Below, piece after piece: positions 54,221-58,195 of a stretch of 64,000 nt of DNA. This DNA is from Escherichia phage Pu-Krd-SF1, in sequence record PQ249395, one strand, 5' to 3'. The translations under genes were made by a program, and so were the position numbers. A model generated the notes under the pieces. It ran no database searches, was not told the DNA's origin, and saw only the letters and a list, made by a program, of their open reading frames with translations. How positions within the stretch are numbered: position 1 is the stretch's first letter; each line of letters starts with the position of its first letter.

Positions 54221-55111
54221 ATGTCAGTAGTAATTAATAATGTCAATGCAGTAATTAAATCATTAGTTAATAAAAAAATGATGAATGAATGGACTGTACT
54301 TCGCCGTGGAGAGCCAGATAAATTTTTTCATAGATTTAACCCAACTTTGGATTTGAATGTTATCGACAAAGATGTTCATGCAGAAATTTTAGATAAGTTT
54401 AAAGTTGATATTGGATTTGGATTAGAAAAACATCTACAGCGAACAAACGGGTCTGGAATGAGTTTATCTAATCGTATCATGAAAGCCCTTAATAAAATTG
54501 GAGCGTTGTCTCGCATTAATGCGAGTGAAATCCTTCGTAATTATAATAAAGGATATGACCTTTATGGTCGACTAATGCCAAAATTATCATTCGATCAAAT
54601 GATTGCGGATTTGTGGAAAAATCAACGACGATTATTAGCATTAGGCGCTCGATTAGCTAAAGGTCTAGATAAACAAATGATTTTTAAGACCAATAATACA
54701 GAAGACCTTAAATGCTTTAAATTTAGTATTCGCGGAGATGATTATTACATCAGAGCTTGCTCTACAGATTATGTTAATATGGGACATCATCTCTGTTTAG
54801 CTTTTGAAGTTTTAAAAGAAGCTGGAACATTAGAATATACGTCTGGTGCTAAATGCCCGATTGGTTCAAATTGCATTTTGATTTATCGCCCGAATGAATC
54901 CAGTTCAACTACATTGCCTACAAAACCTGTACCAGTTCGTAGTAACGAAAAACATTCTGAACAAATTGATTATTTTAATAAGCAGATTGAAGAGCTGAAT
55001 ATTTCTATTCAACAGTATGATGATGAAATTTTCAGACTATCTGGATTGAGTAGTAAAGCTAAATCTGAGCGTGAAAAGTTAATTAAAATCGTTGATTTAC
55101 TTAAATCTTAA
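54221..55111 (+). CDS. paralog family member 1 (unknown function, coiled-coil C-terminus)
   Basis: Start at MSVVINN with RBS GAGGAAAA; shares helix motif (…LLALGARLAKGLD) with the next three genes. Confidence 0.5.
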   Translation: MSVVINNVNAVIKSLVNKKMMNEWTVLRRGEPDKFFHRFNPTLDLNVIDKDVHAEILDKFKVDIGFGLEKHLQRTNGSGMSLSNRIMKALNKIGALSRINASEILRNYNKGYDLYGRLMPKLSFDQMIADLWKNQRRLLALGARLAKGLDKQMIFKTNNTEDLKCFKFSIRGDDYYIRACSTDYVNMGHHLCLAFEVLKEAGTLEYTSGAKCPIGSNCILIYRPNESSSTTLPTKPVPVRSNEKHSEQIDYFNKQIEELNISIQQYDDEIFRLSGLSSKAKSEREKLIKIVDLLKS

Positions 55112-55119
55112 GGAATACC

Positions 55120-56154
55120 ATGAAAACTCGTTCTCAAATTGAAGATATGGTTCGTAACGCTAGCGATACTCGTGATGTTATGACATTTTTGTGTGAAAAT
55201 AATTTAGACCTTGATAAAATTAATCGTGCTATTCATCACTTTAAATATCTGAATAGCAGCGAATGGGTGCGTAATTTTAGTAAAGCAGGGTATATTACGC
55301 AAATGACTGCTCGTGAACAGCTCACCGATTTCTGTAAAACTATTGATTATAAAAATCCTCTATTTGTTCAAGGCGTTGGTCAAAGTAAGGTCGATTTATC
55401 ATCTGGATTTTTCAATCCAAATCATTATCGTATTGAATGGAGATTTATTGCTCTGATCCGTAGACAATTAAAGCAAATTTTGTCGACGGCTAGTCGATTA
55501 AAAGGTTCTGACATTAACTTAAAGAACCTGAAATTTGATGGTTATACTCTTCAGATGGAAGTAAGACCATTAAAAGAAAATAACAGAACTGCACGAATTA
55601 GCTTTAAACCTAATACAAAAAATTCTCTTTCAATTTGCGAATGCCTTAAATCGCAGTTGACAGAAGCATTTAAGTATATGGATGTTGTTGCCGCTGTTCA
55701 GTCTAAGATTTCACAACATTTCGAACGATTTAAATTAGACACAACAACATATGAACTTGATATGATCGTTTCATTTAAATATGAATTTTTGAGAAAGGAC
55801 GAAGTCCCGCAAGAAAAAAAGCAAGAAGTGCAAGATAACTTAAATTTAAATTTAAATTTATCCAATTACTTATCAAACGATCCTAAATTTTGGATGTATA
55901 GTTCAGGTAATAAGGATGCATGGAAATTCAATAAAGTGAATTTTCTTCCTGATGAAAATCCGAGTCTTAAACCTGTTGAAAAATGGCATGCAGATGCGAT
56001 TGAAAAGTCTATCAAGGCAGTAGATGATGAACTCGTTAAAGCAACTAATGAAGTGTTAGAAGCTGAAAAGATGCTAGAAAAAGCTCAAGAAAAAGTCAAA
56101 AATCTCACGAAGCAACGTTCTAAACTGAACAATGCACTAAATGCACTGAACTAG
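55120..56154 (+). CDS. paralog family member 2
   Basis: 344 aa; MKTR N-terminus; motif RQLKQILSTASRLKGSD; C-terminal coiled coil; contains NLNLNLNL repeat. Confidence 0.5.
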   Translation: MKTRSQIEDMVRNASDTRDVMTFLCENNLDLDKINRAIHHFKYLNSSEWVRNFSKAGYITQMTAREQLTDFCKTIDYKNPLFVQGVGQSKVDLSSGFFNPNHYRIEWRFIALIRRQLKQILSTASRLKGSDINLKNLKFDGYTLQMEVRPLKENNRTARISFKPNTKNSLSICECLKSQLTEAFKYMDVVAAVQSKISQHFERFKLDTTTYELDMIVSFKYEFLRKDEVPQEKKQEVQDNLNLNLNLSNYLSNDPKFWMYSSGNKDAWKFNKVNFLPDENPSLKPVEKWHADAIEKSIKAVDDELVKATNEVLEAEKMLEKAQEKVKNLTKQRSKLNNALNALN

Positions 56155-56183
56155 TTTACTTTACCACAGGGATGTGGTATAAT
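56154..56183 (+). promoter_or_regulatory. early promoter (GTTTAC-N18-TATAAT)
   Basis: Consensus elements upstream of paralog 3. Confidence 0.6.
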
Positions 56184-56211
56184 GTTCTTATTTTCTACTG
56201 AGGAGATTAAT

Positions 56212-57213
56212 ATGACTCGTAACGAATATATCAAATCATTCAATAGCGTTATTGATGATAAAGCTATACCGATGTTTGGCCAAAATAGCGTTCTTTCTAT
56301 TATCAATCAATGGCTCAATAGTGTTGATGCAGGTATTGTTTCTTCTACTAAATTTATTCATGAAATTCGTAAAATTTCTAGTCGTGTAGATAAAGATGTT
56401 ATCAAGAAAACCTTTAAAGAGTCTCGTCTTCTTTCATATTTGGTTAATCGGGATATTCTTGGTAATTTTGGGAAAGAAATTAAACGAACCAAAGATGTAG
56501 TAGGATATAATTGGTTCGGTGATGTTAATACTTATCATCTTAATACTAAAGAAGACCCTGAGAATATTTTTACTCGTCGTTGGGTTAGTGAATTTAGGAG
56601 TTTTACGAAGCAAATTCTAAAATCAGCTTCTAAATTATGTTATGGCGATTATCGTCAAATTCATCCCTTAGCTGATGATATGATTATAGCAGAAGAATAT
56701 GAGCTTGATAAAAACAAAGTAGCTATTTTTATTAATTACAGATTTTTTACACCAGAAACTAACCAAAGGAATATTAATAAATTTTTCTCAATTGCTAGCA
56801 CTATAACTCGTCAATTAGAAACCGCATTACTTTGTATGGAAACAGTAGAAAATATTCATACGTATCCTTTTAAGAATATATGCGGTTGGGAAGGATACAA
56901 AATTGTAGTTAGTCTTCGTGAAGTGAAATGTGCTTATTCACCGACTGATAAAGAAATTTACCAACAAAAATGTGATGAAATTGTGAATATTCCTAAAGAA
57001 GAAACTACACTTGAGGAACTAATGGATAATCTTGATGATTCGCCTGAACCGGTAGAAATTCGTCCAGAAGTTATTGCACTAGAAAAAGCTTATAAAGAAG
57101 TTCTAGAAATTTCTAATAAAGCGCAGAAAGAATATGAGAAGGCTAAAAGGATTTGGGAAGAATCTGTTAATCGCCTTGATCGTCTTGAACAAGCTTTACA
57201 GTTAATTAAGTAA
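56212..57213 (+). CDS. paralog family member 3
   Basis: Start at MTRNEYIKS with RBS GAGGAG; motif FTKQILKSASKLCYGDY; C-terminal coiled coil. Confidence 0.5.
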   Translation: MTRNEYIKSFNSVIDDKAIPMFGQNSVLSIINQWLNSVDAGIVSSTKFIHEIRKISSRVDKDVIKKTFKESRLLSYLVNRDILGNFGKEIKRTKDVVGYNWFGDVNTYHLNTKEDPENIFTRRWVSEFRSFTKQILKSASKLCYGDYRQIHPLADDMIIAEEYELDKNKVAIFINYRFFTPETNQRNINKFFSIASTITRQLETALLCMETVENIHTYPFKNICGWEGYKIVVSLREVKCAYSPTDKEIYQQKCDEIVNIPKEETTLEELMDNLDDSPEPVEIRPEVIALEKAYKEVLEISNKAQKEYEKAKRIWEESVNRLDRLEQALQLIK

Positions 57214-57265
57214 TTTAAAGCCAAGGATGGCTCGGAGTATAAATCATTAACCAAGTGAGAAGAAC

Positions 57266-58195
57266 ATGAAAACTCGTAAACATTATATTGATTATTTTGA
57301 CAGTCTTATTACTAAACATCGTAATTATCAGATCGGGCACAGAGCAGTAATCAATAATATTCTTCGTGATTTCCTTCAATATGTTGGCCAGGAAAATCAT
57401 ATCTGTAAAGATACTCAAAACGCTTATTCTCATTCGTTAGGCAATTTGCTTCAATGGTTTAAACGTTCTCGTCTGTTATCTTCTACTGTAGCTAGCGATA
57501 ACATTAAAAACTTTATGAAGCCGAGCTTCATTAAATCTGCGACATCTATAACCGATTTGGTTGAATTTACTATTGTTAACGATGTTAAAAAGACCCATTT
57601 GGCTGATTGGTTATCTACCATTCCTGAAACTAAATTTGCTGATAAATTCGCTTGTCAATTCAATAACCAAGTGAATATGCTTTTTAAGCATGCTCGCAAA
57701 CTATTTACCGCGGGTGATGACCGTACAAATACAGTTCATGTTAAGGATTGGGTTATTGCTGATGAAGTAACACACAAGCCGGGTGGTTCATCAGTATTAA
57801 TTAATATCCAGGTTCCTTATTACTACTCACGTAATCTCGGCACCATGACAGCTAGAGAAATTAATAAGCATAACAAAACTGTTCGTTCGTTGTCTTATAA
57901 ACTCTGCACGATGGTGGAGATGATGGACGTAGTGGAAATGTATGATGAAACCGAAGATAATGGTTCAATGTTATACAGTTCACGTATTCTAATTAAACTG
58001 AAGAATCCTAATACATATAAGCCAGTTGTAAAAGAACCTAAAATAGAAAAAGTTGATAACTTGAGCGAAGAACGTGAATATCTCAATGCTCGTTTGATTG
58101 AAGTTGAAGCCCAGATTGCCGAACACACCAAATTGTTAAAAGCTCTTAATGCAAAAGCAAATGGTTTACGTAATGCTATTGAGGTATTGAAATGA
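57266..58195 (+). CDS. paralog family member 4
   Basis: 309 aa; MKTR N-terminus; motif VNMLFKHARKLFTAGDD; C-terminal coiled coil. Confidence 0.5.
   Translation: MKTRKHYIDYFDSLITKHRNYQIGHRAVINNILRDFLQYVGQENHICKDTQNAYSHSLGNLLQWFKRSRLLSSTVASDNIKNFMKPSFIKSATSITDLVEFTIVNDVKKTHLADWLSTIPETKFADKFACQFNNQVNMLFKHARKLFTAGDDRTNTVHVKDWVIADEVTHKPGGSSVLINIQVPYYYSRNLGTMTAREINKHNKTVRSLSYKLCTMVEMMDVVEMYDETEDNGSMLYSSRILIKLKNPNTYKPVVKEPKIEKVDNLSEEREYLNARLIEVEAQIAEHTKLLKALNAKANGLRNAIEVLK

Follow-up and report, generated by a model that had tools for sequence, protein, structure and literature searches.

Four adjacent genes of an Escherichia phage, orthologues of T4 nrdC.6 to nrdC.3, as a probable array of diverged paralogues with a candidate anti-defence role

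Why does a T4-like phage keep four adjacent genes whose products resemble each other in layout and so little in sequence, and what are they for? The question is raised by positions 54221 to 58195 of a 64,000-nucleotide stretch of Escherichia phage Pu-Krd-SF1 (PQ249395), the whole of which is called the window here. A preliminary description, made from the sequence, had read the four genes as tandem, strongly diverged paralogues with a shared internal motif and a heptad-like terminal helix. Judged by sequence and synteny, they are the orthologues of T4 nrdC.6, nrdC.5, nrdC.4 and nrdC.3 (abbreviated C6, C5, C4 and C3). All four are very probably paralogues of one superfamily, and for one of them, nrdC.5, an anti-defence activity has been published. 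The genes are as follows.

54221-55111, plus strand: nrdC.6 orthologue (C6), 296 aa, 33.9 kDa, pI 9.3, the most divergent member of the array; from open reading frame (ORF), coding sequence (CDS) and T4 synteny
55120-56154, plus strand: nrdC.5 orthologue (C5), 344 aa, DUF7235 (domain of unknown function); from ORF, CDS and T4 synteny
56212-57213, plus strand: nrdC.4 orthologue (C4), 333 aa, pI 6.0, with a GAGGAG ribosome-binding site upstream
57266-58195, plus strand: nrdC.3 orthologue (C3), 309 aa, with nrdC.4 as its closest paralogue

The four genes had been placed correctly, since all four ORFs match GenBank CDSs of Escherichia phage Pu-Krd-SF4 (PQ759884.1) exactly. To that genome the 4.8-kb array region is 100% identical; identity is 90 to 95% to hundreds of Tequatrovirus genomes, and the T4 record U76612 covers 89% of the region at 92.7% identity, with the gene order unchanged. 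The array shares its strand with the early genes of T4 and is flanked by the membrane-protein gene nrdC.7 and by nrdC.2, and the opposite strand has short ORFs only, which are probably spurious. C5 is 93.1% identical to T4 NrdC.5 (tblastn), with conserved position, and matches Pfam PF23882 (DUF7235) over its full length with 406.7 bits (gathering cut-off, 30); no match to PF23882 was found for C6, C4 or C3. C6 matches phrog_2257 (1e-150), and all C6 homologues carry PF26899. C4 and C3 both match phrog_1435 (3.2e-166 and 2.1e-115), and all C4 homologues carry PF26897. Thus, Pfam and PHROG file the array as three families (PF26899/phrog_2257, PF23882/phrog_2351 and PF26897/phrog_1435), and the array proteins match their own PHROGs with E-values of 1e-115 to 1e-168. 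The MKTR starts noted earlier for the genes at 55120 and 57266 are real, with 17 of 19 bases identical around the start codon; nrdC.4 starts with MTR.

For the comparison of the four proteins, family alignments were built from database homologues and 14 related loci. The relation of C4 to C3 was evident from single sequences, with a BLASTP E-value of 3e-9 over 226 residues and a Smith-Waterman z of 12, and it was confirmed by the profiles (hhalign probability, 97.6%; 4e-12) and by the common phrog_1435. On these sequence comparisons, the paralogy of C4 and C3 is certain. Smith-Waterman comparisons with shuffles gave P values of about 0.007 for C6/C3 and about 0.04 for C5/C4, and the other pairs outside C4/C3 were at noise level. 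The C5 and C4 profiles matched in hhalign with 3.3e-4 at full length, and this value improved to 1.4e-4 without the coiled-coil tails; the core-only score was 37.4, compared with 14.3 ± 2.5 in column-shuffled controls (z = 9.3). The core match covers residues 108 to 218 of C5 and 123 to 236 of C4, so that the motif helix and all the rest of the core are included, and it is this mapping from which the topology of the C5 core is predicted (that of C3 follows from homology to C4). C5 is also connected by a bridging sequence, ARW57785 of Serratia phage CBH8, which resembles C5 (hhalign, 94.6%; 7e-8) and matches the N-terminal half of C4 (hhalign, 1.6e-4). The C5 core region matches phrog_12512, the Merlin91 family. 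Taken from profiles and this bridge, C5 is a well supported paralogue of C4/C3.

A bridging sequence was also found for C6. PM2_092 of Pectobacterium phage PM2 is matched by the C6 hidden Markov model (HMM) with 2e-7, carries the identical LALGAR motif, and matches phrog_26858, phrog_2257 (the C6 family; 2.6e-4) and phrog_2351 (the C5 family); C4 and C5 match phrog_26858 weakly. Furthermore, leave-one-family-out HMMs were searched against the 124 ORFs of the window, and the omitted gene was the top non-training ORF in every case. The E-values were 0.008 to 0.013 for C6, 1.6e-4 to 8.6e-12 for C5, 3.6e-8 for C4 and 1.4e-4 to 1.6e-15 for C3, with C6 at rank 1 among 121 non-training ORFs. Word-indexed homologue searches with C5, C4 and C6 returned their own families only.

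The four proteins, soluble and of 34 to 40 kDa, are predicted to have a common layout: a helical N-terminal region, a core, a poorly ordered linker between core and tail, and, at the C terminus, some 50 residues of coiled coil. The core would run through two helices (the second carrying motif B) and then two beta-hairpins separated by the helix of motif C. In an alignment of ten sequences, three motifs are colinear and are followed by a terminal L..A...L[KN], of which the Leu and Ala are invariant. Motif A, within the N-terminal region, has the pattern [KR]S[RG]..s...A...L.NF, and motif C has the pattern K.QL..AL..M..V in the same alignment. Motif B is the internal motif of the preliminary description and is indeed present in all four proteins at comparable positions (aa 117 to 152); in both AlphaFold models it forms the second helix of the pair preceding the beta region. 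Motifs and tails lie at these positions.

54506-54550, plus strand: motif A in C6, LSRINASEILRNYNK, on helix H95-107 of the model; ten-sequence alignment
55285-55338, plus strand: motif A in C5, AGYITQMTAREQLTDFCK, ten-sequence alignment
56422-56475, plus strand: motif A in C4, SRLLSYLVNRDILGNFGK, on helix H72-84 of the model; alignment
57467-57520, plus strand: motif A in C3, SRLLSSTVASDNIKNFMK, ten-sequence alignment
54632-54670, plus strand: motif B in C6, LLALGARLAKGLD, aa 138-150, H135-145 followed by a G-x-D turn
55468-55512, plus strand: motif B in C5, LKQILSTASRLKGSD, aa 117-131, aligned to the C4 motif by hhalign
56605-56652, plus strand: motif B in C4, TKQILKSASKLCYGDY, aa 132-147, in H132-142
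57671-57721, plus strand: motif B in C3, VNMLFKHARKLFTAGDD, aa 136-152, aligned to C4 by BLASTP
54785-54826, plus strand: motif C in C6, HHLCLAFEVLKEAG, H187-200, the helix separating the two beta-hairpins
55645-55689, plus strand: motif C in C5, LKSQLTEAFKYMDVV, by hhalign to C4 and HMM match to CBH8 ARW57785
56803-56847, plus strand: motif C in C4, ITRQLETALLCMETV, in H185-208; hhalign
57890-57934, plus strand: motif C in C3, LSYKLCTMVEMMDVV, ten-sequence alignment
54947-55108, plus strand: C-terminal heptad tail of C6, aa 243-296, a helical hairpin in the model
55984-56151, plus strand: C-terminal heptad tail of C5, aa 289-344, a/d core fraction 0.93
57064-57210, plus strand: C-terminal heptad tail of C4, aa 285-333, a single 48-residue helix in the model
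58052-58192, plus strand: C-terminal heptad tail of C3, aa 263-309, a/d core fraction 0.86

The motif B pattern, [AS][RSK]?[RK]L.{1,3}G.{0,1}D, was derived after the fact from the four sequences. Among the 124 window ORFs it matches exactly these four; shuffled ORFs gave a mean of 0.55 matches, and at least four matches occurred in 0.2% of the shuffles. In pairwise comparison, similarity beyond chance is confined to C4/C3; to connect the remaining genes, it takes profiles, bridging sequences and predicted structure. The long heptad-like terminal helix was borne out in all four proteins: the last 50 residues keep an unbroken register with 71 to 93% aliphatic residues at the a/d positions, and the tails of C6 and C4 are helical in the AlphaFold models.

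AlphaFold2 models were available for C6 (predicted local distance difference test [pLDDT], 77) and C4 (pLDDT, 82). In both, a helical N-terminal region leads into the core, and a linker modelled with low confidence connects the core to a helix or helical hairpin at the C terminus. The core secondary-structure elements follow each other in the same order, with motif B on the equivalent helix.

Core helix: C6 residues 124-133, C4 residues 119-130
Motif helix: C6 residues 135-145, C4 residues 132-142
Short helix: C6 residues 148-151, C4 residues 145-148
First beta-hairpin: C6 residues 166-179, C4 residues 158-174
Helix between the hairpins (motif C): C6 residues 187-200, C4 residues 185-208
Second beta-hairpin: C6 residues 205-222, C4 residues 212-235

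In Foldseek searches of BFVD, the C4 model matched T4-type C3 (8e-9), a second C3 type (5.9e-5) and NrdC.6 of JS10 (5.9e-5; probability, 1.0; template modelling [TM] scores, 0.41/0.48), and the C6 model matched a C3 variant (1.2e-3). Seven distant entries were common to both models (PM2, IME523, fHyAci03, Acj9, Acj61 E5E4A2, CBH8 and fHe-Yen9-01); the first six of these are uncharacterised proteins of 300 to 346 aa from distant T4-like phages, with E-values of 1e-4 to 5e-8. Outside the C4/C3 family, no entry matched the C4 model better over its full length than PM2_092 (4.7e-8; TM, 0.47 to 0.50). Taking the AlphaFold/Foldseek results, the order of core elements, the bridging homologue and the colinear motifs together, membership of C6 is probable, and its link is the weakest of the four. 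Thus, of the tandem paralogues first proposed, the C4/C3 part is certain, C5 is well supported, and C6 is carried mainly by predicted structure with weak sequence evidence.

For the T4 orthologue of C5, a function has been published. An evolved T4 clone with genome deletions did not plate on ECOR17 or on MG1655 carrying dsr1 of ECOR17 (PMC9391042), and expression of T4 nrdC.5 restored plating on cells with Dsr1, a SIR2-domain defence protein (PMC9391042; Srikant, Guegler & Laub, eLife 2022). About 7% of the residues of C5 differ from the published anti-Dsr1 allele, and the allele of this phage is a candidate anti-Dsr1 factor. In the HIDEN-SEQ preprint (10.1101/2025.11.20.689424), nrdC.3 to nrdC.6 are all non-essential in T4. 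The preprint also reports inhibition of Septu by nrdC.1 and of Druantia type III by bas37_0203; gene order and equal length (528 nt) identify the latter as the nrdC.8 orthologue, whose counterpart in the window lies at 53223-53750. Gp49.2 is an inhibitor of OLD (PMC13096335). Because the neighbours nrdC.1, 49.2 and the nrdC.8 orthologue inhibit host defences, the array lies inside an anti-defence island, and the whole stretch from nrdC.8 to pin looks like one. The four genes belong to an accessory region reaching from nrdC to nrdC.11 that is transcribed early and is non-essential. The preliminary description had suggested host-range, exclusion or anti-defence factors; anti-defence is the published activity of nrdC.5 and is plausible for the other three genes, and exclusion is unlikely.

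The same island was occupied wherever the family was found. Every lineage examined, including Merlin, CBH8, PM2, p000v and Acj61, has its one to four copies in the interval from nrdC to nrdC.10.

Tequatrovirus: C6-C5-C4-C3 at the locus
Gaprivervirus- and Dhakavirus-type loci: C6-C5-C4, with C5 22-27% identical
Mosigvirus p000v: a divergent C6 (gp213, 2.5e-42) adjoining a C3-type gene (gp212, 79% identical)
Moonvirus Merlin, Winklervirus CBH8 and Mosugukvirus PM2: one member each
Acinetobacter phage Acj61 (Twarogvirinae): the tandem pair p120 and p121

The two Acj61 genes can be identified as members only from predicted structure and by visual inspection. In every genus that has C6, it stands directly beside a family member. 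Since a single nrdC-nrdC.10 locus is used across distant lineages, family and locus are old. The C4/C3 split looks comparatively recent and the other splits are older than the Tevenvirinae genera, so that tandem duplication as a recent event applies to C4/C3 only. We propose that the array genes, together with phrog_26858, phrog_33957 and phrog_12512, form one Straboviridae-specific, phage-only superfamily.

Other candidates for membership were rejected. Acj61p068, Acj61p079 and Acj61p118 were tested and excluded, as were Merlin92, ARW57786 and PM2_095, the neighbours of about 260 aa of single members. This conserved protein of about 260 aa (MLTEII… to …FFKRPSSV…) adjoins the single member in Merlin and CBH8 and lies near it in PM2; it is found at 10256-11044 of locus L019, 7895-8668 of L021 and 8500-9285 of L024 and has no coiled-coil tail.

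The ratio of nonsynonymous to synonymous substitution rates (dN/dS) was determined from six or seven Tequatrovirus sequences and was 0.11 for C6, 0.19 for C5, 0.21 for C4 and 0.28 for C3, compared with 0.01 to 0.07 for the neighbours nrdC.8 to nrdC.11, nrdC and gene 49. The array rates are thus 2 to 20 times those of neighbouring genes, and the constraint on the array genes is clearly relaxed. All gene-wide and domain-wide values were below 1 (0.02 to 0.63). Gene-wide positive selection was therefore rejected, and the earlier suggestion of a family under diversifying selection is not supported, no gene or domain exceeding 0.63. Across genera and within orthologous groups, conservation is highest in the tails, which are 61 to 77% identical, compared with 22 to 47% for the cores. 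For C6, tail identity is 61 to 70% and head identity 29 to 47%, with a tail dN/dS of 0.02; for C4, the tail is 61 to 65% and the core 22 to 42% identical, with a tail dN/dS of 0.05.

C3 occurs among Tequatroviruses in allele classes of at least 90%, about 77% and about 60% identity (dS of about 0.65), and alleles differ by 40% between otherwise near-identical phages. The divergence of nrdC.2 among Tequatroviruses is as high as that of nrdC.3 (dN, 0.16; dS, 0.74), and the flanks of the two genes are far less divergent (dS of 0.08 for nrdC.1 and 0.17 for nrdC.4). It seems, therefore, that nrdC.3 and nrdC.2 (57266-58503) are swapped as a unit, one allele block for another; their deeply divergent allele classes indicate allele replacement by recombination.

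The other genes vary as well. nrdC.4 is split into two ORFs (193 and 158 aa) in some Tequatroviruses (locus L007, 7971-9003), which suggests a frameshift or pseudogenisation; split versions are also found in the BFVD entries A0A482N302 (phage G8) and A0A2Z5WKJ2 (apparently phage T2). In the natural variant P0056, residues 146 to 276 of nrdC.5 are fused to residues 135 to 309 of nrdC.3 and nrdC.4 is deleted; both genes contain a short direct repeat, AATTCAATAA (55918-55934 and 57650-57666), and this is where the junction, KFNKVN|MLFKH, is situated. In the nrdC.6 variant P0120 (378 aa; Shigella phage Sf25), residues 177 to 259, from the second hairpin across the linker into the beginning of the tail, are duplicated in frame; this internal duplication is either real or an assembly artefact. 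In the linker of C5, Tandem Repeats Finder detected a hexamer repeat:

55840-55860, plus strand: TTAAAT x 3.5, encoding (Asn-Leu)n in the C5 linker

The (Asn-Leu) unit is present in 4 copies here and in 3 or 2 copies in 20 orthologue clusters; in 35 C5 orthologue clusters the run was not matched by the search pattern. This suggests that slippage drives the length variation.

Taken together, an ancient array of four paralogues that are at the same time anti-defence proteins is the reading that we regard as rather probable; for the anti-defence function of all four taken by itself, we see about an even chance. Each paralogue would have a host target of its own, to be bound and blocked by the head, the faster-evolving part made up of N-terminal region and core. 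The strongly conserved coiled-coil tail may oligomerise the protein and so provide avidity against an oligomeric effector, or it may dock to a conserved partner. Copy number, from one to four, and allele content would shift by duplication, deletion and recombination as the defence repertoires of the hosts change. In a bolder form, the family would be a hitherto unrecognised Straboviridae-wide fold family of modular immune inhibitors, used as a multi-specific cassette with a copy number that tracks the host defence repertoire. The tails would then assemble homo-oligomers or even hetero-oligomers of paralogues, with each head blocking a different oligomeric effector; NrdC.5 would block Dsr1, and additional systems, of SIR2/NADase type or unrelated, would be the targets of the others. 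This form is speculative, and we would not expect it to be correct.

Several results weigh against a four-way paralogue array of anti-defence proteins, and a first group of them concerns function. Anti-defence activity was demonstrated for T4 nrdC.5 alone in the family, no mechanism of NrdC.5 is published in the searchable literature, and literature searches for Dsr1 inhibitors and for the Pfam/PHROG identifiers of the family gave nothing beyond PMC9391042. In one HIDEN-SEQ comparison, nrdC.3 to nrdC.6 have no conditional phenotype (log2 fold change, -0.31 to 0.47; q = 1). Oligomerisation of the tail is deduced from the heptads alone, and nrdC.4 is easily lost, as it is split or deleted in some phages. 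The genes could then be true paralogues with a role in early host take-over or in metabolic or regulatory modulation, and the rescue from Dsr1 would be a side effect, for example by removal of a Dsr1-activating signal or by buffering of NAD+ loss. Besides the missing mechanism and the lack of a phenotype of nrdC.3, nrdC.4 and nrdC.6 in that comparison, the dN/dS below 1 everywhere speaks for such a role, and one conserved locus across Straboviridae including Acinetobacter phages fits a housekeeping-like accessory function. It is, however, difficult to reconcile with the dispensability of all four genes in laboratory hosts, with the copy number of one to four and the splitting, fusion or deletion of genes in natural isolates, and with the 40% allele difference between otherwise near-identical phages. 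Moreover, experiments have identified immediate neighbours as inhibitors of Septu, OLD and Druantia III; all this is typical of arms-race genes. The proteins also lack enzyme motifs and gave no match in Pfam (other than the DUF), NCBIfam or the PDB. We therefore consider a role outside defence rather unlikely.

A second group of adverse results concerns the paralogy itself. Pairwise significance was reached by C4/C3 only (P = 0.007 to 0.5 for the other pairs), Pfam holds the array as three separate families, and a HMMER profile of C4 plus C3, searched against 1.84 billion representative proteins, gave nine matches, with no C5 or C6 among them. The Foldseek TM-scores are 0.3 to 0.5, long helices can inflate 3Di/Foldseek scores, and no identifiable C5 orthologue was in the BFVD top 50 of either fold search. 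The C6 profile gave nonsignificant matches to C5, C4 and C3 in hhalign (E = 0.07 to 0.15; z = 1.3 to 2.1). Thus, C6 could be unrelated, with only C5, C4 and C3 as paralogues, and its likeness could be due to convergence or to the acquisition of a similar tail. Such an origin agrees with the noise level of all direct C6 profile comparisons, with a leave-out HMM value of only about 0.01 and a Foldseek TM of at most 0.48, and with the separate Pfam and PHROG family of C6. It is opposed by the eight core elements, which follow one order in the models of C6 and C4 and place the motif on corresponding helices, and by the Foldseek matches, which are two-way at the family level with probabilities of 0.99 to 1.0 and shared distant entries. 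Furthermore, PM2_092 carries LALGAR and yet tops the matches of the C4 model outside C4/C3, C6 comes first among the 121 non-training ORFs, motifs A, B and C and the terminal L..A...L are colinear, and C6 adjoins a family member in every genus having it. A separate origin of C6 is, therefore, distinctly improbable. That the resemblance is a chance product of unrelated AT-rich phage ORFs with no family at all, as the four of six Smith-Waterman comparisons inside the shuffle distribution might suggest, is extremely improbable and already refuted for C3, C4 and C5, since C4/C3 are homologous beyond doubt, the C5/C4 core has a z of 9.3, and bridging homologues, leave-one-out ranking, predicted structures and locus conservation agree.

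Two other identities were tried and rejected. nrdC.3 to nrdC.6 and nrdC.11 are often labelled "thioredoxin" or "Mur ligase domain-containing protein" in GenBank, but none of the four array proteins has a CxxC, no thioredoxin-type Pfam/NCBIfam match was found, and the predicted folds differ. Since both the CxxC and a matching domain are missing, the "thioredoxin" label appears to be an artefact of the positional nrdC.N names. A superinfection-exclusion or membrane protein was rejected because the longest hydrophobic run is 4 to 6 residues and the grand average of hydropathy is -0.39 to -0.67; an exclusion role is unlikely, as neither a signal peptide nor a membrane segment occurs in any of the four. 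PADLOC and NCBIfam scans of the array proteins gave nothing meaningful. No enzyme motifs were found in them, no Pfam relative beyond the DUF, and no relative of solved structure by sequence or fold: PDB sequence searches returned only spurious designed-repeat or caspase fragments, and the best Foldseek match of the C6 model in the PDB had an E-value of 0.015 and a TM below 0.25.

Further features of the region are listed here.

56155-56183, plus strand: sigma-70-type early promoter, TTTACT-17-TATAAT with TG, just upstream of C4; promoter scan
58496-58738: nrdC.1
59179-59526: 49.2
about 59650-60096: pin, whose product inhibits Lon

The promoter has a counterpart in T4, annotated as "early promoter 50.0" upstream of nrdC.4 (U76612). 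At 51676-51695 lies a strong GC-rich bidirectional hairpin terminator, AGGGAGCC-TTCG-GGCTCCCT plus a T-run, as annotated in T4, and a promoter-like site follows it at 51727-51755, just upstream of nrdC.10. The ORF at 51622-52758 runs through the terminator, and its real start is therefore the internal ATG at 51790.

No statement of a four-gene paralogy or of a Straboviridae-wide family was found in the searchable literature. With a common origin of the four genes, nrdC.3, nrdC.4 and nrdC.6, which are without assigned function even in T4, the best-studied phage, become candidate anti-defence factors. If the anti-defence hypothesis is true, the head is the specificity part and the coiled-coil tail the common module. 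The family reaches as far as distant T4-like phages that infect Serratia, Pectobacterium, Citrobacter and Acinetobacter, with one and the same island throughout; this widens the pool of anti-defence candidates, and the series from one to four copies is natural material on duplication, divergence and loss. The insight is incremental but testable, as clustered, fast-evolving anti-defence genes in the accessory regions of T-even phages are already an established theme.

Among known systems, the nearest is T4 NrdC.5 itself, whose layout, motifs and tail are common to the other three genes of the array; unlike it, nrdC.6, nrdC.4 and nrdC.3 fall outside PF23882 and are without reported function. Pfam and PHROG treat the array as three unrelated families of unknown function, whereas here they are joined into one superfamily. 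DSAD1 of Bacillus phage SPbeta reportedly inhibits the SIR2 defence protein DSR2 by direct binding. A phage protein that neutralises a SIR2-domain NADase by direct binding would be the mechanism of NrdC.5 as well, by analogy; DSAD1, however, belongs to another phage group, has DSR2 and not Dsr1 as its target, and is likened by function alone. The dmd-tifA-adfA "anti-TA island" of T4 (TA, toxin-antitoxin; PMC9391042) and the genes 49.2, nrdC.1 and nrdC.8 are likewise early, non-essential and clustered in a variable region, and each of their genes counters a specific host defence and is lost or amplified during adaptation. Those T4 clusters consist of unrelated small proteins, whereas the array consists of paralogues of 300 to 345 aa with a common coiled-coil tail.

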